DNA of 64,000 nucleotides from Candidatus Peribacteraceae bacterium (GCA_028718905.1 JAQUKV010000007.1:588-64587), one strand, 5' to 3'; numbered from the stretch's first letter, positions 1,993 through 62,347 are shown. Numbers and translations are program-made. The notes: generated by a model not told the origin, from the sequence alone.

Positions 1993-3720
1993 TTAGGAAG
2001 TACGTTTTTTTCTTCCTATGAAAGCCGTCGAGATGAGCAGTGCGCCCACGAGGAAGAAGGTGACGATCCGTCCCGAGAGCTCCATGCTCCAGACATCGAT
2101 CAGGAGCAGGCGCGCCACCACGCAGCCCAGTACCACTCCACCGTATACTTTCAATCCCTGCTGTCCCTTCGCTTTTCCCGCGAGATGGGTGATGAGCCCG
2201 ATGATCGTGTAGACAGCCAGAGCACTCATCACCGCGGTGGCATCCTGCAGCGTTGCCTGTAGTGAGAGCCAGAGCAGTGCGTAGAGGTATAGGGAGCCCA
2301 ATGCCGCCAGAAGCCCGCTGGGAAGTTCGAGGTCTGCCGGCTTCGCCATCCGCGCCTGCGACCAAAGAAAGGCGCCGAGGCCGAGCAAGACGACTCCCAG
2401 CGTGAGGAGCACAAAGAAGTCATCATGCCAGATGCCTATGGACCAGCCCATGGACCATTGGGGGGAGGTCAAGCTGTCTACAGAGAGCGCAATCGGTCCG
2501 ACAAAGAGCAGAGAGGTCCGTAGCGCAATCTTGAGATCCTTGAGCAGGCCATAGGCCAGTGCGGCGATGACTCCGGTTTCCAAGGTGTAGGCGATGGTTA
2601 ATGCGGCACCTTCAAATTTTGCGGCCGTCGCACCGGCAAGCAGGACAATACCCACTCCCACATACACATAGAGCGGTTCGCGCTTGTGAGTGATGGTGAA
2701 GATCGAGAACGCCCCGATGACGAAGAGGAGCATCCACCCGACGATGATCAGGCTTTTCCATTCATCCGGAGCCGCCATCATGATCCAGGCCAGCAGGAAC
2801 AAACCGGTGCCTGCGGCAGTGAGCAGATCCGGAAGCATTTCCTTCTTCTCCAACTTCAAGAGCCCTGCGGTATTGGTGACGAAGAAGGCAGCCGCGAACG
2901 CGTACGCGAGCAGCAGCAGAGTGGGGAGTTCCACCGGCTTCGATGCGAGTGTGGGGATGCTGTAGAGCGCGATGATGATAAGAGCCGCCGCGGTGAGCTC
3001 GTGTCTGCGGATGATGACAGCGATCCAGATGGCACCTAGTGTGACAATCAGCAGGTAGGTGAAGAGTCCCACGAGGTTCGGTTCTGGCGAGTGCGTGAGC
3101 AGCGGTGCGACGCTTGCAAGGATCAGACTGCCGAGCGCAAGGGCGCGATTGTTATAACGTACGCTGGCGAATCCCACGAAGGCTGTGCTCAGAAACATCA
3201 GGGCGAGAGCGCTCAAGGGCGTGAAGAAACCGTACACCGAGCGTGCCGCAAAGATCGTCACCAGAATCACTGTGGATCCCAGCACCAGAAAGACACCTCC
3301 CTGATGAATGAATTTCTGGATTCTCCAGAAGCCAAGCAGTAGAAAGAGAACGCCGGCAACGATGCCGAACGCGATGCGACCCATGGGACCGATCCAGTTG
3401 TTCATGAAGGCATAGGTCGTCAGCCAGCCGAATGCGATGATCAGGAGCAGTGCGCCCAACTTGAGCAGCCAGTCCTCTTTCGCCCAAAGTACAAAACGAT
3501 CAAGTGCCGTGGGGGCCGAGTGTTGTGGGTACAAAACGGGTTGTTGCCGTTCCTGAACGGACTCCTCACGTAGAGGGCGTGCAGGTAATCTGCCTTCATG
3601 GATGCATTCTTCCAGTGCGTCCACGCGCCTGCGCAGATTGGACACCGAGAAAAGCAGGATGATCGGGCTCACAATCAAACCGAGCACCACAAGGAGGAGG
3701 ATGAGAAAGATGGATTCCAT
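1993..3720 (-). CDS. Polytopic membrane protein (DUF2339-like architecture)
   Basis: 575 aa. One N-terminal TM, a short charged or coiled segment, then more than 12 hydrophobic helices. The family name is from memory of the architecture only. Confidence 0.65.
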   Translation of the reverse strand: MESIFLILLLVVLGLIVSPIILLFSVSNLRRRVDALEECIHEGRLPARPLREESVQERQQPVLYPQHSAPTALDRFVLWAKEDWLLKLGALLLIIAFGWLTTYAFMNNWIGPMGRIAFGIVAGVLFLLLGFWRIQKFIHQGGVFLVLGSTVILVTIFAARSVYGFFTPLSALALMFLSTAFVGFASVRYNNRALALGSLILASVAPLLTHSPEPNLVGLFTYLLIVTLGAIWIAVIIRRHELTAAALIIIALYSIPTLASKPVELPTLLLLAYAFAAAFFVTNTAGLLKLEKKEMLPDLLTAAGTGLFLLAWIMMAAPDEWKSLIIVGWMLLFVIGAFSIFTITHKREPLYVYVGVGIVLLAGATAAKFEGAALTIAYTLETGVIAALAYGLLKDLKIALRTSLLFVGPIALSVDSLTSPQWSMGWSIGIWHDDFFVLLTLGVVLLGLGAFLWSQARMAKPADLELPSGLLAALGSLYLYALLWLSLQATLQDATAVMSALAVYTIIGLITHLAGKAKGQQGLKVYGGVVLGCVVARLLLIDVWSMELSGRIVTFFLVGALLISTAFIGRKKRTS

Positions 3721-3895
3721 AGACTTGCATCATAGCAAACGATCTGTTCGTGCATAACAGAACGGAATTAAGGAAAGCGGCGCGTTTTGGCGGAGCGAAA
3801 CAAGAGTGAAAATATGCCCGGCTCGAATTGGTTGATTTTCGCTGACAGATGCCATTTTCCATGAACCGCATATGACAGTTCAGTGTGTTCCTGGT

Positions 3896-3951: not shown

Positions 3952-4221
3952 ATGACCGTCTCACAGTCCGCACTCGCCAAGGTTCACGATCTCTACGTCA
4001 TGCAGATCGAGCTCTGGAAACATTTGCGCGAGGGAAATTTTCAGAAGGCCGATCAGCGGAAAGAAACACAGAGGTGCCTGAAGCAATTCTCCCGTCTGCT
4101 CGATCAGGTGGACTGGCATTACATGGGCGGCGAGGATGTTCTGGCAGAACTGAAGACGATGCGCGGTGAAGTGTCGGCACAACTGAGAAATATCCGCCGG
4201 AGGAAGACGAAGAAAAAGTAG
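3952..4221 (+). CDS. Small helical hypothetical protein with basic tail
   Basis: 89-aa ORF with a promoter-like element upstream. No recognisable family. Confidence 0.5.
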   Translation: MTVSQSALAKVHDLYVMQIELWKHLREGNFQKADQRKETQRCLKQFSRLLDQVDWHYMGGEDVLAELKTMRGEVSAQLRNIRRRKTKKK

Positions 4222-4311
4222 TACGCAGTAAGCAGAGAGCAGTAAGCAGAGTTTTCTTGTGCGCTTTTTTTCGATATGCGTTCTGCGTAATACTTACTGC
4301 ATACTGCTTAC
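4221..4311. repeat. GCAGTAN heptamer-word hairpin, copy i
   Basis: Left arm GTACGCAGTAAGCAGAGAGCAGTAAGCAG. Right arm CTGCGTAATACTTACTGCATACTGCTTAC. It fills the gap between two convergent stop codons. Confidence 0.8.
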
Positions 4312-7149: not shown

Positions 7150-8847
7150 TCAGTGTAGCACTCCTTCCGGCAGTTGCGTCTCTTCCTTGAGTGATGAGGA
7201 GGCTACTCGCAGATCTTCGATGACGATCTGCGGCGCCCTGTGTCCGTTCCACGTGTCGACGCCGATCTTGCAGAGGAGATCGAGTGACTGGCCGGTATGA
7301 TCGCTTAGGGGACCCAGCCGCCATCCGATTGTTTTCAATCCCGCGGTGCGTCCCTGCAGGTGCGCCCCCTCCTTCCCGACGCGCCGCGGTTGCTCCAGCG
7401 TAACATTCTTGAGGAGGAAGACCGGTTCGGGATTTCCCTGACCGAACGGTTCCAACTGTTTCAGTTGTGCACAGAAGGAGAGCGAGATGTCCCGCGCTTC
7501 GATCATCGCATCTGCGGCGAGTGCGGGAATGAGATGCTCTCGTGTGGTGCGCGCGGCCGCGTCCTGCGACAGGCGCCGCAACACTTCGGCAAGGTTCTGC
7601 TCCGGGAACGTGCATCCCGCCGCCTGCGCATGGCCGCCGAATGCACTGAGCAGATCGGCGACCCGCTCGAGACCCTCGGTGACGTGATAGGCGGGCGTGC
7701 TGCGCAGTGACGCCGTGCATTCCCGATCCCGGATGGTGACCACGACGCTGGGATGCCCTGTCGCTTCGGTGAGCCGGCCTGCGATGAGGCCGATGAGTCC
7801 GGACGGAAACTCCACATCCGTTCCCGTGACGGTGAGGAGTGCCGGGAGTGCGGCCATCTCTTCTGGTCGCGGTTGTGAAGAGAGATGCAGGAGCTGCCAT
7901 GCACGCGCGAACAGGCCGCCCGTGGCGTCCTGACGGTGCGTATTGAGCTGCCCGAGCCGGGTGAGAGCTTCTCCGCCCTCCAGCAGAGCCGTAAGCGCAA
8001 TGAGAGGGTCCTGCATGCGTCCGGCGGCGTTGATGCGTGGAGAGAGGCGGAACGCGACATCCGTGCTCGTCAGAGGTCCGCCCTGCGTGCGTACGGATGC
8101 CGCGAGAAGGGAGAGCGGTCCTTTGTCGAGCGCATTGAGGGCGGCGATGCCCTGTTGTACCAGAACGCGGTTCACGCCGCGTAACTCGACCAGATCCGCG
8201 ATCGTGCCGATGGCCGCGAGGGCGAGATCCGTCTGACGGTCATCCCACTCGTCCGCCCCTTCGAATGCGCGGATGAACTGCAGGGCGACCCCTGCGCCGG
8301 AGGGATGGGGCAACGGGTGGCGTGGAGCGAGAGCGGGATGGATCAGCGCCAGCGCTTTCGGCACTTCATCCTGTACATGGTGGTGATCCGTCACGATCAC
8401 GTCGATTCCCCGTGCGGACGCCAGAGCGATTTCTTTGATCGCAGTGATGCCCGTATCCACAGTGAGGAGCAGGGTGACGCCGCGCACGCCGCATTCCTCA
8501 ATGATCGTCCGGTTGAGTCCGTAGCCGTCGTGCACGCGGTGCGGCAGACGCACGACGGGTTCGTTGCCGTGTCTTTTCAATAATCGCACGAGGAGCGCAG
8601 TCGCCGTGATACCGTCGCAATCGTAATCGCCGAAAATCCCGATGGTTTCACCTGCCGCAATGGCGCGTCTTACGCGCTCCACGGCACGGGGCATATCCGG
8701 AAAAATCCACGGGTCTAAGAGCGCGTTACCGGAGGAGAGGGAACGCTCGGCCATGAGTCTGGCGGGGATTGCCGAAGGCACAGCATCTTTCCGCTCCGGA
8801 ATGATCCAGCGTTTACCCGTTAACGAGAGAGGATTCTGCACAGGCAA
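7150..8847 (-). CDS. recJ: Single-stranded-DNA-specific exonuclease RecJ
   Basis: 565 aa. DHH family motifs IFGDYDCDGITA, DTGI and VTDHH. Confidence 0.9.
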   Translation of the reverse strand: MPVQNPLSLTGKRWIIPERKDAVPSAIPARLMAERSLSSGNALLDPWIFPDMPRAVERVRRAIAAGETIGIFGDYDCDGITATALLVRLLKRHGNEPVVRLPHRVHDGYGLNRTIIEECGVRGVTLLLTVDTGITAIKEIALASARGIDVIVTDHHHVQDEVPKALALIHPALAPRHPLPHPSGAGVALQFIRAFEGADEWDDRQTDLALAAIGTIADLVELRGVNRVLVQQGIAALNALDKGPLSLLAASVRTQGGPLTSTDVAFRLSPRINAAGRMQDPLIALTALLEGGEALTRLGQLNTHRQDATGGLFARAWQLLHLSSQPRPEEMAALPALLTVTGTDVEFPSGLIGLIAGRLTEATGHPSVVVTIRDRECTASLRSTPAYHVTEGLERVADLLSAFGGHAQAAGCTFPEQNLAEVLRRLSQDAAARTTREHLIPALAADAMIEARDISLSFCAQLKQLEPFGQGNPEPVFLLKNVTLEQPRRVGKEGAHLQGRTAGLKTIGWRLGPLSDHTGQSLDLLCKIGVDTWNGHRAPQIVIEDLRVASSSLKEETQLPEGVLH

Positions 8848-8888: not shown

Positions 8889-9037
8889 GCCTCACCCCCT
8901 TGCCCCCTCTCCATCCCTGCCACGATTCCTTCATGGAGAGGGGGAGAACGGTCTCTTCAAAGTATGCTCATCTACAGGAAGAGCGTGCCCCTCTCCCGTT
9001 GGCGTTAAGTGGGTAGGGAGAGGGGTAGGGGGTGAGG
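8889..9037. repeat. Nested-palindrome ~150-nt element, copy 1
   Basis: GCCTCACCCCC..CCCCCTCTCC..GGAGAGGGGG..variable..CCCCTCTCCCGTTGGCGT..GGAGAGGGGTAGGGGGTGAGG. Confidence 0.85.
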
Positions 9038-9089
9038 AAAAAAACAGCACACAAAAACAGCTCCAATCCCTCATGTCCAATTCCAATCC

Positions 9090-13254: not shown

Positions 13255-13343
13255 AGCAGTAAGCAGTTCGTATTACGCAGAACGCATTCTCTGCGAGTGC
13301 CCTATTGATGCAATGCTCGCTGCGTACTGCTTTCTGCTTACTA
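13255..13343. repeat. GCAGTAN heptamer-word hairpin, copy ii
   Basis: AGCAGTAAGCAGTTCGTATTACGCAG ... CTGCGTACTGCTTTCTGCTTACT, between jag and the HU gene. Confidence 0.8.
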
Positions 13344-23267: not shown

Positions 23268-23361
23268 ATCGCGAACCCCGCACGTGGCTATCGGGGTGGA
23301 GCGATACCTCTAAAGGGAAAGGATGGTTCATGGAAGGAAAACCGTAGGTTTGCCTTCCATG
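23268..23361 (+). ncRNA. Structured-RNA-like element, copy B
   Basis: ATCGC-GAA-[CCCCGCACGTGGCTATCGGGG]-TGGA-GCGAT-ACCTCTAAAGGGAAAGG-ATGGTT-[CATGGAAGG AAAACCGTAGGTTTG CCTTCCATG]. Confidence 0.6.
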
Positions 23362-23550
23362 CCGAACAGCCGTTGAGCAGGGACGCTATGCTCCTGGGTA
23401 ACCAGGTGGGTGGCCGCATCCTCCGACCACGGTCGGGGGAGAGTAGGCCTCCCCTAGAGCACTTGAGGAGAAACGTACCGGCTCTGACGTGCCGTCCAGA
23501 CGATGGGATTCTAGCGACGAGGATGGAGGATTGCCATGCAGCTCTTCATA

Positions 23551-27301: not shown

Positions 27302-27302
27302 T

Positions 27303-27376
27303 GCAGTACGCAGTATGCAGTACGCAGTGAGTAAGTGGTAGAAAGTTTCTTTGCATACCTGCATACTGCTTACTGC
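27303..27376. repeat. GCAGTAN heptamer-word hairpin, copy iii
   Basis: GCAGTACGCAGTATGCAGTACGCAGTGAGTAAG ... CTGCATACTGCTTACTGC. It lies between the divergent GT4 and ftsQ-like starts. Confidence 0.8.
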
Positions 27377-39512: not shown

Positions 39513-39549
39513 GTGGCGGGCCACGCCTCGCATGCGAGGCGTGGCGGGA
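39513..39549. repeat. 37-nt palindromic direct repeat, left copy
   Basis: GTGGCGGGCCACGCCTCGCATGCGAGGCGTGGCGGGA. It differs at 2 positions from 40814-40850. It is flanked by a T-run (minus-strand sense) and by a degenerate tRNA-3'-like stretch. Confidence 0.8.
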
Positions 39550-40813: not shown

Positions 40814-40850
40814 GTGGCGTGCCACGCCTCGCATGCGAGGCGTGGCGGGG
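40814..40850. repeat. 37-nt palindromic direct repeat, right copy (abuts the tRNA-Asp 3' end); extra half-copy at 40784-40805
   Basis: GTGGCGTGCCACGCCTCGCATGCGAGGCGTGGCGGGG. In minus-strand sense it forms a hairpin plus GTGGCACGCCAC-GATTTTTT directly after the tRNA CCA. Confidence 0.8.
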
Positions 40851-40919
40851 CTGACGGGACTCGAACCCGCGACCTTCCGCGTGACAGGCGGACGCTCTAA
40901 CCAGCTGAGCTACAACCCC
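40843..40919 (-). tRNA. tRNA-Asp (anticodon GTC)
   Basis: The reverse complement folds as GGGGTTG-TA-GCTC-AGCTGGTTA-GAGC-G-TCCGC-CTGTCAC-GCGGA-AGGTC-GCGGG-TTCGAGT-CCCGT-CAGCCCC-G-CCA. Confidence 0.9.
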
Positions 40920-44898: not shown

Positions 44899-46115
44899 TC
44901 TTCGCCATCGTCTACCTGGGAACGCAGCTCGTGTTCCGGCTGTTCTTTCCGCAGCAGGCCGCGGGGCCCAACAGTCTTGCGGATGTCGTGCTCAAACCCG
45001 ATGCAGCGCATGTGAAAGGCGATCACAGTATCACGCTCTCTCTGCGCAATAACACGGAGGGCACGCTCCTGCTTATGAATCGCTGTCCAATGCCGCCCGT
45101 TTCAGTATTTTCCGTGACAGGAGAGGGATCGGGCGCCCAGCTGGCTCCGCTCTTCACCACAGAGACGGCGGTGCCCTGTACGCCGCTGACCGAAGTCGCC
45201 CCGAAATCCACGGCGCGCATCGATCTGGGTCCGTGGAAGTACTCGCTTTTCTCGCAGTACGGTACCTATGAAGTGCGACTGCCTTCTGAAGCCACATTCC
45301 GCACGGCGAGCGGTGCCATTGTCCCGGCGGAATACGGCACGCTCAGCGGACGGGTCACGCTCAGCGAAGCAGGCCCCTTCACCAGGCTCTTCCGTGCGTT
45401 CATCACGAAGCCCTTTCTGAATTTTCTCATCTTCATTGCCTCCGTGTCTCCCGGGCACAGTCTGGGCGTGGCGATCATCATTCTCACGCTGGTTGTGAAG
45501 TTTTTGCTCTTCATTCCCACACAGCACTCGCTGGAAGGTCAGAAGAAGATGCAGAAAGCGCAGCCGATCCTCGATGAAATCCGCCGCAAGTACAAAGACG
45601 ATCCCAAGCGCATGCAGGAGGAAACGATGAAAGTCTGGAAAGAGCACGGCATCAATCCGTTCCAGTCGTGCCTGCCGCTCCTGATCCAGATGCCGGTGCT
45701 GATCGGGGTCTTCTACGTTGTGCGCGACGGATCGGTGCTCGAGCTCTCGCGGCACCTCATTTATCCTTTCTACCAGCATCTCGACTGGACGTTCGGCACC
45801 ACGTTTTTGGGGCTCGACCTGCTGCAGTCGAATTTCCTCCTTTTCTCGCCACTGTTGGTCATTCTGCAATTCATCCAGATGAAGCTCACATTCGCCGCGG
45901 CGAAGAAGAAGAAGGCGCAGCAGGGAGACAAATCGAAAGCCGAAGGGGACAAGAGCCAGCAGCTCCAGCAGCAGATGATGCTCTACGGCCTGCCGCTCAT
46001 GATCGGTGTCTTTGCCTATCAGTTTCCGTCGGCTGTGTCGCTCTACTGGGGCGTGTCGACTCTCTTTGCTATCGGTCAGCAGATCGTGGTGAACCGCGAG
46101 AAGATCACGCTGTGA
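44850..46115 (+). CDS. yidC: Membrane protein insertase YidC
   Basis: 421 aa. GVAIIILTLVVKFLLFIPTQHSLEGQKKMQKAQPILDEIRRKYKDDPKRMQEETMKVWKEHGINPFQSCLPLLIQMPVLIG. Confidence 0.9.
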   Translation: MPETPRKRSALLEFALIFAIVYLGTQLVFRLFFPQQAAGPNSLADVVLKPDAAHVKGDHSITLSLRNNTEGTLLLMNRCPMPPVSVFSVTGEGSGAQLAPLFTTETAVPCTPLTEVAPKSTARIDLGPWKYSLFSQYGTYEVRLPSEATFRTASGAIVPAEYGTLSGRVTLSEAGPFTRLFRAFITKPFLNFLIFIASVSPGHSLGVAIIILTLVVKFLLFIPTQHSLEGQKKMQKAQPILDEIRRKYKDDPKRMQEETMKVWKEHGINPFQSCLPLLIQMPVLIGVFYVVRDGSVLELSRHLIYPFYQHLDWTFGTTFLGLDLLQSNFLLFSPLLVILQFIQMKLTFAAAKKKKAQQGDKSKAEGDKSQQLQQQMMLYGLPLMIGVFAYQFPSAVSLYWGVSTLFAIGQQIVVNREKITL

Positions 46116-46120
46116 GATTT

Positions 46121-46271
46121 GCCTCACCCCCCTGACCCCCTCTCCACCCCTACAACGATTCCTGCATGGAGAGGGGGAGATGCTTATATGTTCATTACAG
46201 CATGTCATATCTGATTGCTCGCCCCTCTCCGGTTGGCGTCGGGCGGTGCGGAGAGGGGTCGGGGGTGAGGC
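46121..46271. repeat. Nested-palindrome ~150-nt element, copy 2
   Basis: GCCTCACCCCCCTGACCCCCTCTCC...GGAGAGGGGG...CCCCTCTCCGGTTGGCGT...GGAGAGGGGTCGGGGGTGAGGC, between the convergent yidC and fbaB genes. Confidence 0.9.
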
Positions 46272-46284
46272 AGGAAACTGCCTC

Positions 46285-50265: not shown

Positions 50266-50363
50266 ATCGCGAAGCGCGGGTCTCGCGGGTTCCCGCGCTG
50301 GAGCGATTCCTCTAAAGGGAAAGGAGAGTCCATGAGGGGAAAACCGTAGGTTGTCCCCTCATG
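50266..50363 (+). ncRNA. Structured-RNA-like element, copy C
   Basis: ATCGC-GAA-[GCGCGGGTCTCGCGGGTTCCCGCGC]-TGGA-GCGAT-TCCTCTAAAGGGAAAGG-AGAGTC-[CATGAGGGG AAAACCGTAGGTTGT CCCCTCATG]. Confidence 0.6.
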
Positions 50364-51393
50364 CATAAAAGGCTATGAAGTGAAAGATACGGCGGAGGGA
50401 CAGAAGGTACGAAAACTATAGTTATTCTTTTTGATGCATCGGGAATCGTTGTCTCGTTGAGTGGAGAACTGATTGGTTTCCTCTGTCCTTTCTTTGCCAA
50501 GCGCGGCAAAGAAAGGACGAAAGAAAGCGCTGCGCCTATGAACCCCTCCGCTATCGCCGCCACATAGGCGCGTTTCCGGAAATTTTGTTGGCTGTTTTGT
50601 TTCCGCATCCGATTTTGTTTTTGTGGGCGTTCTTCTTCTTCACCTTTGTTCATTCAGCGCAGCCATTGAAAACAGGTACCTTCATTAAGGAAATTTAAAG
50701 GGAAATGTCAGGTCAATAAAACGTCGTGTTAAGGCGGCCGAACGGAAAAAGAGCTTTACCAACACATATTTCCTATACATCAAGGTGGTTTTTTACCCAC
50801 TTTCCGGAGTGAGTAAGCCTATTTTCTCTTCAATTCTCTTAAGAGAAATTGGCAATAAGTGCCTTTTGAGCCATCAATTCCGGAACGTTCCGGCAGAAAT
50901 GACCCTGTAACACTCCCTATTCCTCCCCGTTTGACCCAATGCACGGATCCGTGCGAGATCTTGCAGCTTCCTGCAGATTTCCATAGGATCTCCGCGATCC
51001 GCCTTCCTCGAGGAAAGGAAAGCGAGATCCGTGTATACGCCCTTTGACAAATCGGCGCCTTGCCTTTGTCCCGCGTATGCGGGACGAGACAAGCTTCACA
51101 CCTTGCTTTCCTTTTTATAGGGAAGGACAGGTCGTGTTCCTTCAGTGGCCGTCGAACCCTGGAAAGGATCTCCTTGGCCTCGTGACACCTCTTTATATAT
51201 AAGGAGAAGCCCCGCACTTTTGCGGGTTCATGTGGATGAATGTAAAAGCATCCGCAAGAGCGCGGGGCGTTCTCGCACACAAGAGCGCAGGGGGACAGGT
51301 AACGAGTCACTACCCACAATCACTTTCATACCATCATCGCATTTCCTCATTTCCTCATTTTTCGGTCTTTATTTCCTCTCTACTCCATACCTT

Positions 51394-55677: not shown

Positions 55678-55723
55678 TTGCATTTCGGTGATTCGTAGTA
55701 TTTGACGCGTGCAACCAAACTAA

Positions 55724-55752
55724 GCCCTCCCGCGAAAGCGGGGGGGCTTTTT
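55724..55752 (+). terminator. Rho-independent terminator
   Basis: GCCCTCCCGC-GAAA-GCGGGGGGGC followed by TTTTT. Confidence 0.8.
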
Positions 55753-55770
55753 GGAATAGGCATGGGAATT

Positions 55771-55923
55771 GCCTCACCCCCTATCCCCCTCTCCCTACCT
55801 ACAACGATTCCCACAGGGAGAGGGGGCACACACTGTCATTTCAAAAAAGGCAAGAAATACCAGAAAGAGCGCGCCCCTCTCCGGTTGGCGTTGGGGGGTA
55901 CGGAGAGGGGTCGGGGGTGAGGC
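55771..55923. repeat. Nested-palindrome ~150-nt element, copy 3
   Basis: GCCTCACCCCCTATCCCCCTCTCC...GGAGAGGGGG...CCCCTCTCCGGTTGGCGT...GGAGAGGGGTCGGGGGTGAGGC. Confidence 0.9.
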
Positions 55924-55928
55924 AGGGA

Positions 55929-57068
55929 TCACCCAAGCAAGCTCCGTTTCCATTGCAGCAGTGTTTTTGTCACTGGCCGCAGCACAATCTCCTGTTCCGG
56001 CGGATAGATCTCCACGCTGCCGCCAAACTTCTCTTTAAAGACACTGACTCCCTGCCAGAGATGGTTCGCCGGTGCGTCAGGAGGCGAGACACCCAGCAGG
56101 TCGTAGGTGGTGCAGCCGGCAGCTCTGGCATGGCGCATGGCGGCCCACTGCAGGGCGTACGGCGCCATGAGGGCCCTGTGAGCGTAGTCGGATGCCCCAT
56201 AGTAGTAATAGGCCTTCGAGCCCCAGATAACGCCCAGAAGACCCGCAACGGGTTTTGCCTCACCCCCCCAACCCCCCCTCTCCTTTACCACTCCACTTGC
56301 CTCAGGAGAGGGGGGAGCGCCTTGTCTTTCTGAAACATGTATGGAAGCAGAGAAAGTGCGCCCCCTCTCCGGTTGGTGTTGGGTGGGATCGGAGAGGGGG
56401 TTGGGGGGTGAGGCAGCAAACGCCAGAAAGAGGAAACTCCCCGTTAATTCCCTCAAAAAAGCCTCGTAGTGTCGTGCGGAGTGAAAAGAAAAGTTGTCGC
56501 GAAGTCCGGTTTGCTTTAGTAGACCCATGAAAGCGGGAATATCCTGCGATTCCACCACACGAACGCCATTCTTCTCCGCCACGGAGATGTTGTATCGGCC
56601 TTTGGGTTTCATTTGCCGGAGAATGTCTTCCTCCGTCAGCGTGAGATCGATGATGCGCGTGGCGGCGGGTTGTTCGTGACGGGATGAGGGACGCAGTACG
56701 CAGTACGCAGCGCGCAGTACGCAGGGTGTTTCGGGCGAGAGGTAAATGCTCAAGCATTTCTCTTGCCGTGCCTCCCGAACAATAGTTTCAAGCAGATCAC
56801 TTGCGGCGTACTGCTGACTGCTTACTGCCAGTGGGCCGCGCGGGATATCCCACGTCGAAAATCCGAAAGCCGTCCGATCGATGGTCACAAGAGCGGAGGC
56901 AAGGATCTGCGTTTCTTCCATAAGAGCATAGATCCGTGCTTCGCGTCCGAGTGCCTCCTGAAAGCGCTTCCACTCCAGCGACTGCCACAGGGAGCCCAGC
57001 GGGTGATTTCGAATAAACCGGTCGTACACGGCGAGATCCTCCGTTGTAGACAGGAGGTGGTTATGCAT
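55929..57068 (-). CDS. FemAB-family peptidoglycan interpeptide-bridge aminoacyltransferase, carrying in-frame repeat insertions
   Basis: LWQSLEWKRFQEALG, KPKGRYNISVAEKNGVRV, GSKAYYYYGASDYAHRALMAPYALQWAAMRHARAAGCTTYDLLGV and GVSVFKEKFGG are FemAB/FemX-like. The ORF is uninterrupted across two repeat families. Confidence 0.75.
   Translation of the reverse strand: MHNHLLSTTEDLAVYDRFIRNHPLGSLWQSLEWKRFQEALGREARIYALMEETQILASALVTIDRTAFGFSTWDIPRGPLAVSSQQYAASDLLETIVREARQEKCLSIYLSPETPCVLRAAYCVLRPSSRHEQPAATRIIDLTLTEEDILRQMKPKGRYNISVAEKNGVRVVESQDIPAFMGLLKQTGLRDNFSFHSARHYEAFLRELTGSFLFLAFAASPPNPLSDPTQHQPERGRTFSASIHVSERQGAPPSPEASGVVKERGGWGGEAKPVAGLLGVIWGSKAYYYYGASDYAHRALMAPYALQWAAMRHARAAGCTTYDLLGVSPPDAPANHLWQGVSVFKEKFGGSVEIYPPEQEIVLRPVTKTLLQWKRSLLG
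56257..56414. repeat. Nested-palindrome ~150-nt element, copy 4 (intragenic)
   Basis: GCCTCACCCCCCCAACCCCCCCTCTCC...GGAGAGGGGGG...CCCCCTCTCCGGTTGGTGT...GGAGAGGGGGTTGGGGGGTGAGGC, inside the FemAB-like ORF. Confidence 0.9.
56691..56828. repeat. GCAGTAN heptamer-word arms, copy iv (intragenic)
   Basis: ACGCAGTACGCAGTACGCAGCGCGCAGTACGCAG at 56691-56724 and GCGGCGTACTGCTGACTGCTTACTGC at 56803-56828. Both arms lie inside the FemAB-like ORF. Confidence 0.8.
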
Positions 57069-58423: not shown

Positions 58424-61400
58424 ATGGCGAAGAAAGTTGCGAAAAAAGTTCACAAGAAACCCGCATCCAAATCCGCACCCCAGTCTTCGCCAAGGCTTCG
58501 GCCGGCAGGCAAGAAAGTGGCACATCGCACGGTGGCTCATGCCGTGAAGAAGGCGCCTTCTTCAGCCAAGAAACCTGTGGCGGCTGCCAAGAAACCTGTG
58601 GCGGTTTTGCCCGTAAAGAAGCCCGCACTGCCCCCCAAGCGCTCGTACCGCGTGCATGTGGAGGAGAAGATCCTGCCGCAGATTGAACCGCCGATTGTTC
58701 CTCCTGCCGGACGCGCATCCCTTGCCGTACGCAATCTTCCCGCGCACCTCACGCCCACACGCATTGCCGAAGGCCGCGTGTACCTGACTGAGGAGGAGAA
58801 TATTTCCGAGATTCTGCCGTCCCTGATCGAGATGCAGATCTTGAGCTACCGGTGGTTCCTCACCGAGGGCATCAAGGAGCTTCTGGAAGAGATCAGCCCG
58901 ATCACGGACTTCTCGGGTCGCAAGATGGAGCTGCGAATCCTCGGGCATACGTTCGATCCTTCCAAGTACGATCCCGAGACGTGCCGCCGCCGCAACCTGA
59001 CCTACGAAGCGGCCATGAAGGGCCATGTACAGCTCATCAACAAAGAAACCGGCGAAATCAAAGAGCAGGATGTGTTCCTCGGGTCGATTCCGCTCATGAC
59101 GAACACGGGTACGTTCATCGTCGGGGGGATCGAGCGCGTGGTGGTGCACCAGCTCGTCCGTTCGCCGGGCGTGTTCTTCAGTAAGATGCCCGATTATCCC
59201 AAATACCATGCCGCCAAGATCATCCCCAAACGGGGCGTGTGGCTGGAGATCGAAACGGATCGCCGCGGCATCATCACCTGTAAAATCGATCGCAAGCGCA
59301 AGATCCCCATCACGCAGCTTCTGCGCGTGTTCGGCTATGCGACGGATCAGAAAATCCTCGACCTCTTTGCTTCGGTGAAGGGCAAGGACGCCGACTACAT
59401 TCTCACCACGCTCGAGAAGGATTCCGTGCGCACCGTGGAGGAGGCCTACCAGAGCATCTATAGAAAGATCCGCCCGGGGGATCTGGCTACGCCCGAGAAC
59501 GCCAAACAGCTCATCGACTCGCTCTTCTTCGATTTCAAGAAATACGACATGGGCCAGATCGCCCGCTACAAGCTCAATCGTCGCTTCGGCTTCAAGACGG
59601 ACAATGACGAGTCGCACCGCGTGTTTCAGGTATCCGACTTCGTGGCGATTCTCAAAGAGCTCATCAATCTGAATAACGGGCTCGGGGTTCCCGACGACAT
59701 CGATCATCTCGCCAACCGCCGCATCCGTTCCGTGGGCGAGCTCGTCCAGAATAAATACCGCGTGGGTCTGGTGCGCACGGAGCGCATCATCAAAGACCGC
59801 ATGACCGTGCTCGATATGGAGACCGTTACGCCCACCCAGCTGATCAACTGCCGTCCGATCACCGCGGCCATGCGCGAATTTTTCGCAAGCTCGCAGCTTT
59901 CGCAGTTCATGGATCAGACGAACCCCCTCGCGGAGCTCTCGCACAAGCGTCGCCTCTCCGCCATGGGTCCGGGAGGACTCTCGCGCGAGCGCGCCAGTTT
60001 CGACGTGCGTGACGTGCATCCCAGCCATTACGGCCGCATCTGCCCGATTGCCACACCCGAAGGTCCGAACATCGGTCTGGTGGTGCATCTGGCGGCGCTG
60101 GCCCGCGTGAATCCCTACGGGTTCCTCGAAACGCCGTATCGTGAAGTGAAGAACGAAATTCCGTTGGACCCCGATAAACTCGTCGGTCGCATGATCGGCG
60201 ATACGATCCGCGAGGACCGCAAGGTCCTGCTCAAAGAGGGCGAGCTGGTTGCCACCAAGGAGATGGCCCGAAAAATCGTTTCCATCTGTCGTCAGGAGGG
60301 CAAATCCGCCGTGCCGGTGCGCCCCTACGTCACCAGCAAGTTCATCTATATTGACGCGGAACAGGAGCGTCACCTCACGATCGCGCAGGCACAGACCAAG
60401 TATTCGGAGCTCGGAGAGTTCCTGTCGACGACCATCTCCGCCCGCCGCAGCGGCGAACCGGTGCTTGTGGACGGACGCGATGTCACGCACGTGGATATGA
60501 CCCCCAAGCAGATTCTGTCGGAATCCACGTCGCTCATTCCGTTTCTGGAGCACGACGACAACACGCGTGCCTCGATGGGAACGAACATGCAACGTCAGGC
60601 TGTGCCGCTGATCTGTCCATCCGCCCCGCTCGTGGGTACGGGCATCGAAGGTCTGACGGCACGCGCCTCCGGTCAGGCGGTTCTGGCGGACGAAGACGGC
60701 GAGGTGGTGAGCGTCGACGCCGCGCACATCGCCGTGGTGTACCGTTCCGGCCGCAAACAGCAATTGTCCCTCACCACGTTCGTCCGCAGTAACCAGGGGA
60801 CATGCGTCCTCATGCGGCCGCGCGTGCACGTGGGTGAAAAAGTCCATCGCGGATCGGTGCTGGCGGACGGGTCGGCCGTCGAGAACGGGGAGCTCGCGCT
60901 GGGGCAGAACCTGCTCGTGGCGTACCTGTCGTGGGAGGGCGCGAACTTCGAAGACGCCGTCATCATCTCGAGCCGCGTTGTGCGCGACGGCTGGTTCGAC
61001 TCCATTCACATCGAGTCGTACGTGACGGATGTGCGCGACACGAAGCTCGGTTCCGAGACGGTCACGCGCGATATCCCGAACGTGGGCGAGGCCAAGCTCA
61101 AGGATCTCGATGCAGACGGCATCGTACGCATCGGCGCCACGGTGCATGAAGGTGACATTCTCGTGGGCAAAATCACACCCAAGGGCGAGACGGAGCTCAC
61201 ACCGGAAGAACGGCTTTTGCAGGCGATCTTCGGTGACAAGGCGAAAGACGTGAAGGATTCGTCGCTCCGGTTGCCGGGGGGCGCGGGCGGCAAGGTGGTG
61301 GATGTGCACATTTTCGACCGGGCCGAGGGTGACGAGTTGCCGACCGGTGTGATCAAGCAGATCAAAGTTTTCGTCGCGCAGACGCGCAAAGTGCAGGTCG

Positions 61401-62347
61401 GCGACAAGATGGCGGGCCGCCACGGAAACAAAGGCGTGGTCTCGCGCATCGTGCCGGCCGAGGATATGCCGTATCTGGAGGACGGCACGCCGGTGGATAT
61501 CATTTTAAATCCTCTCGGCGTCACTTCCCGTATGAACATCGGACAGATTCTCGAAACCCACTTGGGCTGGGCCTGTGAAAAGCTGGGGATCAAGGTTGCG
61601 ACTCCGGCCCTGAATGGAATTTCCGTCGATCAGATCGAGGAGTTCCTCAAGGCGGCCGGCCTGCCGACCGATGGCAAGGTGCAGCTCTTCGACGGGCGCA
61701 CCGGCGAGCCGTTTGCGCACAAGACCACCGTGGGCATCGTGTACATGCTCAAACTCCTCCACCTCGTGGAGGACAAGATCCATGCACGCAGCGTCGGACC
61801 GTACTCGCTCGTCACGCAGCAGCCGCTCGGCGGCAAGGCGCAGCACGGAGGCCAGCGTTTCGGAGAAATGGAAGTCTGGGCGCTGGAAGCCTACGGCGCG
61901 GCCTACACGCTGCAGGAGATGCTCACGATCAAGTCCGACGACGTGATCGGGCGCTCCAAGGCCTACGAGGCCATCGTGAAGGGTGAGCCCATCCGCCGCC
62001 CGTCGATCCCCGAATCCTTCAATGTTCTCGTGAAGGAACTGCAGGCACTGGGACTCAAAGTCGAGCTGCTCAAGTTCAAGGACGAGGTTGAGCCCGAGGA
62101 GCGGACGACTCTGGAAGCGGGCGAAGTGGAGCAGGTGGAACTGCGGTCGCGCGTTGAGGCGGAGGCCGAAGCCGAAGAAATCCTCAATGCCACAGAGAAG
62201 ATCTCGGAGCTGGATGCGCCGGGCAGCGAAACCGCCGAGGAGGTGGTGGGAGGCATCGAAGAGGGGGAACCGGTGGAGGCATCGGGAGTCACCGCCAAGG
62301 AAGAAATGAAAGAGGCAGTCAGCGAAGAGTCGATGGAGGACGCATAA
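58424..62347 (+). CDS. rpoB: DNA-directed RNA polymerase beta subunit with Lys/Ala/Pro-rich N-extension and acidic C-tail
   Basis: 1307 aa. The conserved core runs from LIEMQILSYRWFL through SFNVLVKELQALGLKVEL. No in-frame ATG lies between 58424 and the conserved N-terminus. Confidence 0.9.
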   Translation: MAKKVAKKVHKKPASKSAPQSSPRLRPAGKKVAHRTVAHAVKKAPSSAKKPVAAAKKPVAVLPVKKPALPPKRSYRVHVEEKILPQIEPPIVPPAGRASLAVRNLPAHLTPTRIAEGRVYLTEEENISEILPSLIEMQILSYRWFLTEGIKELLEEISPITDFSGRKMELRILGHTFDPSKYDPETCRRRNLTYEAAMKGHVQLINKETGEIKEQDVFLGSIPLMTNTGTFIVGGIERVVVHQLVRSPGVFFSKMPDYPKYHAAKIIPKRGVWLEIETDRRGIITCKIDRKRKIPITQLLRVFGYATDQKILDLFASVKGKDADYILTTLEKDSVRTVEEAYQSIYRKIRPGDLATPENAKQLIDSLFFDFKKYDMGQIARYKLNRRFGFKTDNDESHRVFQVSDFVAILKELINLNNGLGVPDDIDHLANRRIRSVGELVQNKYRVGLVRTERIIKDRMTVLDMETVTPTQLINCRPITAAMREFFASSQLSQFMDQTNPLAELSHKRRLSAMGPGGLSRERASFDVRDVHPSHYGRICPIATPEGPNIGLVVHLAALARVNPYGFLETPYREVKNEIPLDPDKLVGRMIGDTIREDRKVLLKEGELVATKEMARKIVSICRQEGKSAVPVRPYVTSKFIYIDAEQERHLTIAQAQTKYSELGEFLSTTISARRSGEPVLVDGRDVTHVDMTPKQILSESTSLIPFLEHDDNTRASMGTNMQRQAVPLICPSAPLVGTGIEGLTARASGQAVLADEDGEVVSVDAAHIAVVYRSGRKQQLSLTTFVRSNQGTCVLMRPRVHVGEKVHRGSVLADGSAVENGELALGQNLLVAYLSWEGANFEDAVIISSRVVRDGWFDSIHIESYVTDVRDTKLGSETVTRDIPNVGEAKLKDLDADGIVRIGATVHEGDILVGKITPKGETELTPEERLLQAIFGDKAKDVKDSSLRLPGGAGGKVVDVHIFDRAEGDELPTGVIKQIKVFVAQTRKVQVGDKMAGRHGNKGVVSRIVPAEDMPYLEDGTPVDIILNPLGVTSRMNIGQILETHLGWACEKLGIKVATPALNGISVDQIEEFLKAAGLPTDGKVQLFDGRTGEPFAHKTTVGIVYMLKLLHLVEDKIHARSVGPYSLVTQQPLGGKAQHGGQRFGEMEVWALEAYGAAYTLQEMLTIKSDDVIGRSKAYEAIVKGEPIRRPSIPESFNVLVKELQALGLKVELLKFKDEVEPEERTTLEAGEVEQVELRSRVEAEAEAEEILNATEKISELDAPGSETAEEVVGGIEEGEPVEASGVTAKEEMKEAVSEESMEDA
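58565..58606 (+). repeat. Tandem 21-nt repeat inside the rpoB 5' extension
   Basis: GCCAAGAAACCTGTGGCGGCT followed by GCCAAGAAACCTGTGGCGGTT, encoding AKKPVAA and AKKPVAV. Confidence 0.9.

Follow-up and report, generated by a model that had tools for sequence, protein, structure and literature searches.

How can a protein-coding gene carry a long palindromic repeat within its reading frame and remain whole? The question is raised by a 64,000-nucleotide stretch of a Candidatus Peribacteraceae bacterium genome (GCA_028718905.1 JAQUKV010000007.1:588-64587; the window, meaning the whole stretch of DNA analysed), in which a preliminary description had placed a nested palindromic element, at 56257-56414, in frame inside a FemAB-family gene that it leaves unbroken. 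Our open reading frame (ORF) listing, translation, Pfam search and ortholog alignment agree with that placement and confirm that the minus-strand ORF 55929-57068 is an intact FemAB-family gene despite the inserted palindrome. The element occurs four times in the window (Table 1), and the intragenic copy, copy 4, is very probably a non-autonomous palindromic repeat, built of two inverted BoxC/TMECO-type modules and a spacer, that sits in a beta-hairpin turn of a FemX-like enzyme as a tolerated passenger and not as a selected domain.

The ORF encodes 379 aa with zero stops and zero frameshifts, including across the ~158-nt element, as had been stated before. Its product matches FemAB (PF02388) at E=4e-44 and 151.5 bits, against a cut-off of 24, and FemAB/Acetyltransf_6 are its only Pfam domains. 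Its relatives come from Candidatus Peribacteria / Peregrinibacteria and are FemA/FemB-family proteins with a typical length of 325-335 aa; identity to the nearest ortholog is 62% for the full-length protein and 69% within the alignment. All invariant columns of an alignment of 118 orthologs (38/38) are present in the window protein, and near-invariant columns are mostly kept. The gene order rpoB-SOD-FemAB-SLH protein is common to the window and related contigs, and this conserved synteny shows one FemAB copy at the locus.

Translation of 56256-56417 on the minus strand gives AASPPNPLSDPTQHQPERGRTFSASIHVSERQGAPPSPEASGVVKERGGWGGEA, flanked by FLFLAF and KPVAGLLGVIWGSKAYYYYGASD (KPVAGLLG), exactly the peptide and flanks reported earlier. 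The same report had assigned the site to a short turn between two strands, and the orthologs agree: the loop between the ...FLLLA strand and the PIAGLLG strand has a modal length of 5-7 residues, found in 63 of the 118, so that orthologs without the insert do exist. In 42/118 the loop measures at least 10 aa, and the window protein has the longest, at 56 residues. An AlphaFold2 model of the window protein, built on the ortholog alignment (mean pLDDT 90, pTM 0.86), is confident on both sides of the insert and places residues 218-272 as coil, flanked by strands 211-217 and 273-282, in which pLDDT falls below 50 at 236-266. The insert is thus predicted to form a disordered surface loop between two strands, and the remaining fold matches FemX. 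Foldseek retrieved S. aureus FemX (6snr, E=1e-22) and Weissella FemX (1ne9, TM 0.76), and the model has the two-subdomain GNAT-like fold of FemX.

The insertion site has a precedent within the same protein family. HMMER aligned query residues 15-204 to FemX 11-216 and residues 274-353 to FemX 304-382, and the coiled-coil domain of S. aureus FemX comprises residues 235-297 (PMC8280954). The element therefore occupies the hairpin that bears the ~60-residue arm of staphylococcal Fem proteins, which is independent evidence that this site tolerates large insertions. The insert peptide itself (54 aa) gave 0 matches at E<=1e-3 in an exhaustive phmmer search against 1.84 billion representative proteins, which argues against a conserved protein module. 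This search cannot serve to count host proteins, because reading frames differ between element copies.

The same loop has received other palindromes. P0002, P0004, P0005, P0008, P0010 and P0017 have a common 27-residue loop, of which ~21 residues are the inserted part; in P0005 this insert is a 63-nt palindrome with a canonical triplex module, CCCCTCCCCC ACC GGGGGAGGGG AC GGGGGTGGGGG, whose loops are 3 and 3 nt. P0030 carries a 111-nt double module at this position (-73 kcal/mol), and P0040 a palindrome of ~147 nt (-105 kcal/mol). P0005 (369 aa; L002:3001-4110) and P0006 (328 aa; L003:3001-3987) form a filled and empty pair in the same rpoB-SOD-FemAB-SLH context, differing by the 63-nt indel and by an in-frame 60-nt palindromic indel after LLGIAP. 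Their 33 mismatches cluster at the indels: the first has 23 of them no more than 50 nt away and the second 6, and only 4 of the other 787 nt differ. No convincing target-site duplication was found in this pair, whose flanks have diverged. The cause is either recombination, which would have brought in an insert-bearing patch from a diverged lineage, or local mutagenesis by insertion or excision, which would recall the unstable flanks reported for TMECO.

Other parts of these genes are also variable. Palindrome-like inserts occur in orthologs at two further loops (window residues ~113-124 and 327-336), one after LLGIAP and one before WQGVS, for example PPAVAEASPSAEATGDKLASR, and LSPNPSPAAAGEGG in P0040. 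The window gene contains a heptanucleotide tandem repeat, (ACGCAGT)n / GCAGTAC, of ~5 copies at 56691-56724, which is in frame as residues PCVLRAAYCVLRP and corresponds to a second loop in which orthologs differ. Arrays like it lie elsewhere in the window (4216-4251, 13256-13281 and 27302-27328), and the coding sequence of P0005 contains CTACAAG x4 and GGGATTA x4. Heptanucleotide arrays of this kind resemble the cyanobacterial STRR heptamer repeats.

An insert that recurs in one loop could be an adaptive, selected addition, such as a surface tether or a flexible arm in place of the coiled-coil with which staphylococcal Fem proteins bind tRNA. Its position, exactly at the site of the FemA/FemX/MurM coiled-coil arm (PMC8280954), and the enlargement of the loop in 42/118 orthologs would fit such a role. 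We nevertheless regard it as quite improbable: a selected peptide function is argued against because the window peptide is without relatives, as well as being predicted to be disordered, because the inserts of different FemAB lineages show no sequence relationship, vary in length between 10 and 56 aa and all bear the DNA palindrome signature, and because near-identical alleles exist with and without an insert.

It is slightly harder still to believe that the FemAB gene was inactivated recently and is now a pseudogene, or that it is a non-functional paralog, its frame having been kept by luck. The retention of invariant and near-invariant columns, the confident model on both sides of the insert, and the conserved synteny with one copy at the locus all speak against inactivation. 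Moreover, copy 4 is the most diverged copy of its family (58-67% identity to nine other aligned copies), so its insertion is probably old, yet the gene has no other lesion. What such a reading has in its favour is that copy 4 is open in 3/6 frames, which puts the chance of a preserved frame at ~0.1-0.17, and that the gene is presumed, from its sequence, to be expressed.

Removal of the insert before the protein is finished, whether by partial DNA excision, RNA processing, ribosomal bypass or protein splicing, is very improbable, although the strong hairpin and the presence/absence alleles in a related lineage could be taken to suggest it. There is no stop codon or take-off/landing pair of the kind needed for bypass, and three assemblies hold only the filled allele. 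An intein was considered and rejected: the insert is a low-complexity coil of 54 aa lacking intein motifs, compared with a splicing domain of at least 130 aa with conserved N- and C-terminal blocks, and Pfam finds none, so protein splicing is unlikely. The Rfam scan assigned the element to no family and returned only a sub-threshold match to a plant miRNA hairpin (33.9 bits against a threshold of 90); two tRNAs, and nothing else, are above threshold in the window.

That a repeat was wrongly joined into the FemAB gene during assembly is scarcely credible, for although the element is repeated and one Logan contig ends in neighbouring copy 3, the 1140-nt gene has 0 mismatches to the NCBI metagenome-assembled genome GCA_028711605.1 and to the Logan assemblies of SRR22315507 and SRR22315508, an agreement of three assemblies and two read sets that makes an artefact unlikely, the FemAB frame continues through both junctions, and copy 4 is unlike all other copies and therefore cannot be borrowed from one of them.

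We therefore return to the tolerated passenger. A non-autonomous element, resembling a MITE (a miniature transposable element with inverted repeats) or a REPIN, would have inserted into the codons of the short beta-hairpin turn of a FemX-like gene. The element arms are C/T or G/A runs, whose sole stop is a TGA in one of the three frames of GGGTGAGG; only the short, AT-richer spacer would put the reading frame at risk, leaving a sixth to half of the frames open (stop-free frames in copies 1, 2, 3 and 4: 1/6, 2/6, 2/6 and 3/6). As the arms are nearly stop-free and the net change in length is a multiple of three, the ribosome would read straight through, probably yielding a Pro/Gly/Ser-rich, disordered surface loop of ~53 residues, for which the hairpin of the 60-residue staphylococcal coiled-coil arm would be sterically permissive. 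Selection would remove insertions that break the frame or strike the structural core; since other insertions into an essential gene would be lost, copy 4 can be read as a tolerated passenger. Movement may rely on an endonuclease acting in trans, possibly DUF559, or an insert-bearing patch may have spread between lineages by homologous recombination.

Several points weigh against this explanation. It is from sequence and model that we infer that the insert is translated through the hairpin and that the enzyme still works, and the -95 kcal/mol hairpin in the mRNA could impede translation or attract RNase III. The closest sequence for comparison is an ortholog 62-69% identical, and not an empty-site allele of the same species, and a single insertion would be in frame and stop-free by chance in ~1 of 6-10 tries. 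As to the insertion mechanism, no consistent target-site duplication appears among the direct repeats flanking 10 aligned family copies, and no known transposase or parent insertion sequence was recognised for the element.

All four window copies have in common the termini TGCCTCACCCCC / GGGGGTGAGGCA, which form terminal inverted repeats, and the inner arms CCCCCTCTCC / GGAGAGGGG. The element is ~150-158 nt long and has no ORF of its own; measured from CCTCACC to GGTGAGG, copies 1-4 span 148, 149, 151 and 156 nt. Its terminal pattern has 5 matches in the window and 0 in 100 shuffles. Copy 4 folds at -95 kcal/mol on the minus strand and -102.5 kcal/mol on the plus strand (z about -6.4, range -6.3 to -6.6), an energy equalled by 0/200 shuffles. 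Copy 4 is mixed, its left loop being typical of one subfamily and its spacer as long as in the other, and it is not a recent duplicate of neighbouring copy 3. Copy 3 had been described as lying just beyond the FemAB stop codon, which is correct; the distance then given, 6 nt, differs from our measurement (Table 1) only by a trivial matter of boundary definition.

The promoter and terminator scan returned nothing specific to copy 4. Near copy 3, the gene for a 1510-aa SLH-type protein is closely followed by a G/C-rich hairpin with a T run after it (AAGCCCTCCCGCGAAAGCGGGGGGGCTTTTTGG, 55720-55750); this is likely an intrinsic terminator common to the convergent genes and separate from copy 3.

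Table 1. Coordinates of the FemAB-family gene, the copies and parts of the palindromic element, and the DUF559-containing units (window positions unless a locus is given).
Feature	Position	Strand	Description or basis
FemAB-family gene (FemX-like aminoacyl-tRNA-dependent peptidoglycan bridge transferase), 379 aa, intact	55929..57068	-	ORF listing, Pfam, orthologs, model, gene order
Element copy 1 (c1)	8889..9041		Intergenic, ~40 nt upstream of the start of minus-strand ORF 7150-8847
Element copy 2 (c2)	46118..46274		Intergenic, between convergent ORFs ending at 46115 (+) and 46285 (-)
Element copy 3 (c3)	55770..55926		Intergenic, between convergent genes, 4-5 nt past the FemAB stop codon (55929-55931)
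Element copy 4 (c4), TGCCTCAC...GTGAGGCA, 158 nt	56257..56414		In frame on the minus strand, encoding residues 218-271
Copy 4, left triplex-type module	56258..56315	-	C block CCCCCTCTCC, 21-23-nt loop, G block GGAGAGGGGG, 4-6-nt loop, mirror G block GGGGGGGTGAGG; triplex-module scan
Copy 4, central spacer (AT-richer; contains a small inverted repeat, CTTTCTG...CAGAGAAAG, in its interior)	56316..56360		Encodes the middle of the insert peptide; sequence, copy alignment
Copy 4, right triplex-type module	56361..56413	+	CCCCCTCTCC, 20-nt loop, GGAGAGGGGG, TT(G), GGGGGGTGAGG; triplex-module scan
DUF559 ORF between inverted BoxC/TMECO-type modules	L124:984-4496 (-), L101, L010:3763-4288, L118:1626-2142, L139:8442-8900		Bacteroidota and one Peribacteria-type contig

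To our knowledge, the origin and function of BoxC/TMECO repeats have been an open question since the 1990s. TMECO, earlier called BoxC or PIT, is a G/C-rich intrastrand triplex motif, CCCTCNCCC N3-6 GGGNGAGGG N3 GGGNGAGGG, with 3610 copies in 262 proteobacterial genomes, which sometimes occurs as inverted pairs and, in E. coli MG1655, is reported to lie between genes without exception (Holder et al. 2015, PMC4666352). Its single strand forms a triplex in vitro, which has not been demonstrated in vivo; it has no promoter or terminator activity and is linked to local sequence instability (PMC4666352). When the window was scanned for the corresponding block grammar (an 8-10-nt C block, a complementary G block and a mirror G block, with A and T interchangeable), exactly 8 modules were found, two in each of the four element copies and none elsewhere in the 64 kb. 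By "triplex-type" we refer to this block grammar, the folding tools used here predicting hairpins only.

The window blocks CCCCTCTCC / GGAGAGGGG / GGGGGTGAGG are TMECO consensus words moved one base out of register. All window modules have a second loop of 3-4 nt (6 nt in one alternative register of copy 4), whereas the first loop is 19-23 nt in every one of them, longer than the 3-6 nt of TMECO (1-6 in the ITxF search). A first loop of canonical length (3 nt) is present in the 63-nt insert of the P0005 ortholog and in copies from other phyla. By sequence, then, the window family appears to be a BoxC/TMECO variant with a long first loop, in which two inverted modules enclose a spacer. The likeness extends to the near-same words in the same grammar, CCCTCTCCC - loop - GGGAGAGGG - 3-nt loop - GGGGTGAGGG, and to frequent inverted pairs, wide distribution, high conservation and local sequence instability (PMC4666352). 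The window copies differ in that they reside in a bacterium of the candidate phyla radiation (CPR) and that one is inside a coding sequence, whereas TMECO was found in Proteobacteria and outside genes in E. coli MG1655.

Triplex-type modules are widespread. A scan of GTDB representative genomes with GGAGAGGGG N1-5 GGGGTGAGGC gave at least 120 loci; hosts among the matches listed include Bacteroidota, Chloroflexota, Acidobacteriota, Gemmatimonadota, Proteobacteria, Patescibacteria and others, and many of the modules listed are inverted pairs 80-300 nt apart. Among these matches (120 loci), 51/149 modules lie within an ORF that extends for 60 codons or more in both directions. We checked five such inserts in Bacteroidota against Pfam and found host domains on both sides in four. 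A pair of modules is in frame in genes for leucyl-tRNA synthetase (LeuRS, L124), a nonribosomal peptide synthetase (NRPS, between PCP and reductase; L099) and a ResB/CcsA fusion (L039), and in the ABC-2 permease of L056 an in-frame pair interrupts a single membrane-domain match; the transglutaminase-like protein of L032 has Pfam domains only upstream of the insert. In all five hosts, the left module is read as LTPxPSPxGEG.

The window's own family enters at least one other gene. In L150 (Ga0265297_10000213), a 194-kb metagenome contig, it is in frame in an HhH-GPD DNA glycosylase gene (ORF 2525-3772), with 223 codons before the element and 146 after. The terminal frame is the same as in FemAB (AASPP...GGEA), and the frames of the two in-frame copies are partly different. 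The L150 gene also contains a second repeat-like segment (SYESRVMSHGKQRNSKLKTH), of a type seen as well in FemAB loops of other lineages (SHESRVMSHE...). The copies in L126, L139, L153 and L169, which are close to contig ends or gene starts, are not counted as intragenic, the spanning ORFs being stop-to-stop artefacts or the element lying upstream of the likely start. When metagenomes were scanned with CCCCTCTCCSGTTGGYGT, the core specific to the family, 64 loci contained 65 matches, of which only 6 are full elements; the remainder look like chance.

Five loci among the matches listed, all retrieved for the triplex pattern alone, have an ORF of the DUF559 family (PF04480, E=1e-34 to 1e-36) directly between two inverted modules (Table 1). 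We take DUF559 to be a Vsr-like PD-(D/E)XK endonuclease family that includes E. coli YcjD. The DUF559-enclosing units that were measured span 434-526 nt, and the whole unit is in frame in the LeuRS gene of L124 and in a 1319-codon ORF in L101. The Peribacteria-type metagenome contig L139 contains both a DUF559 unit and the window's element family. In the reverse direction, nine DUF559 homologs were picked by tblastn from a plasmid collection regardless of repeats. A triplex-type module lies within ~170 nt of 8/9 of them and on both sides of 5/9, including a Sphingomonas plasmid unit that is flanked on both sides and inserted between sufB and sufC. The E. coli gene ycjD has a module on one side only, TMECO no. 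9, located 168 nt past its 3' end. No DUF559 gene is present in the 64-kb window, and two long triplex pairs of Prevotella veroralis (L097, 528 and 550 nt) enclose no DUF559 ORF. Our literature search returned no paper connecting DUF559 with BoxC/TMECO.

We tentatively propose, as a possibility that falls somewhat short of probable, that BoxC/TMECO-type modules are the terminal repeats or homing sites of a pan-bacterial selfish element with a DUF559-encoding autonomous form. ORF-less pairs, such as the window's four, would be miniature derivatives. Both forms would be compatible with read-through and would colonise surface loops of essential proteins (FemX, LeuRS, NRPS, ResB/CcsA, ABC-2 permeases and DNA glycosylase) in Patescibacteria, Bacteroidota and probably other phyla. 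If so, this element would be the cross-phylum counterpart of the Rickettsia palindromic elements (RPEs), and the association would supply a candidate enzyme for BoxC and a testable role for DUF559 and E. coli YcjD.

Other repeats in the window are recorded here for completeness. An 85-nt direct repeat, 76% identical between 23292-23376 and 50294-50378, ends in a hairpin in each copy (GGAAGGAAAACCGTAGGTTTGCCTTCC); it matches no Rfam family and may represent a common leader or a further family of repeats. A perfect 26-nt palindrome, GCCACGCCTCGCATGCGAGGCGTGGC, occurs in two copies 1.3 kb apart (39520-39545 and 40821-40846), the second directly abutting the tRNA gene at 40846-40919. Additionally, rpoB (58424-62347) has an N-terminal extension of ~100 residues rich in Lys/Ala/Pro, with a 21-nt tandem repeat at 58565-58604.

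Palindromes that are read through in proteins and BoxC/TMECO modules are both already known, and a single event would not surprise a specialist in bacterial repeats; what was not expected is that such repeats recur at one hairpin, occur across phyla and are associated with DUF559. Our literature search found no report of such elements in Peregrinibacteria/CPR bacteria. These observations place palindromic passengers in proteins, first called unique to Rickettsia, in ultra-small CPR bacteria, and they link the read-through passenger to a repeat type reported only between genes in E. coli MG1655. They also mark one FemX-type hairpin as a natural permissive site, which may be useful for protein engineering, and they serve as a warning for annotators that Pro/Gly-rich "insert domains" in proteins of metagenome-assembled genomes can be repeat DNA.

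Among known systems, a structural counterpart is the coiled-coil arm of S. aureus FemA/FemX and MurM (PMC8280954), likewise a large insertion in the same beta-hairpin of subdomain 1B; that arm, however, is not repeat DNA but an antiparallel helical domain, folded and conserved, for which a role has been proposed. At the level of DNA, the element resembles REPINs in being an inverted doublet of a short hairpin unit around a spacer, which yields one long hairpin, and, judging by the flanks of the aligned copies, in having no target duplication. It differs in that its units start with TGCCTCAC and lack the GTAG/CGTC head (cf. PMC3733652). REPINs are extragenic by definition and mobilised by RAYT, and no RAYT gene was seen here, the window ORFs not having been scanned for PF01797. 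In-frame palindromes outside Rickettsia include ERIC in enterobacteria and the Coxiella MITEs (QMITE1) (PMC10969869, PMC5896051). As with these intragenic MITEs, the window element is short and non-autonomous, has terminal inverted repeats and is fused in frame with a host ORF; it differs in that a target-site duplication and a parent insertion sequence were not recognised, and that its candidate partner is the DUF559 endonuclease and not a known transposase.

A parallel in behaviour is that of the RPEs, an analogy which the preliminary description had drawn and which is apt. RPEs, as summarised in PMC10969869, are palindromes of ~100-150 bp, both intergenic and in frame in unrelated housekeeping genes, that are read through as an extra peptide at sites compatible with the fold (Ogata et al. 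2000, 2002). The window palindrome is likewise in frame in a protein gene without disrupting it, while its other copies are intergenic. The differences lie in the host phylum (CPR/Peribacteria), in a very G/C-rich sequence built of triplex-type modules, and in the peptide: each RPE family encodes a conserved one, whereas the window insert has 0 relatives and is predicted to be disordered. The window element is not a member of the RPE, ERIC or Coxiella MITE families, being set apart by host, composition and peptide rather than by comparison with RPE sequences. It shares with RPEs the capacity of a palindrome to lie within a protein gene and leave it intact.

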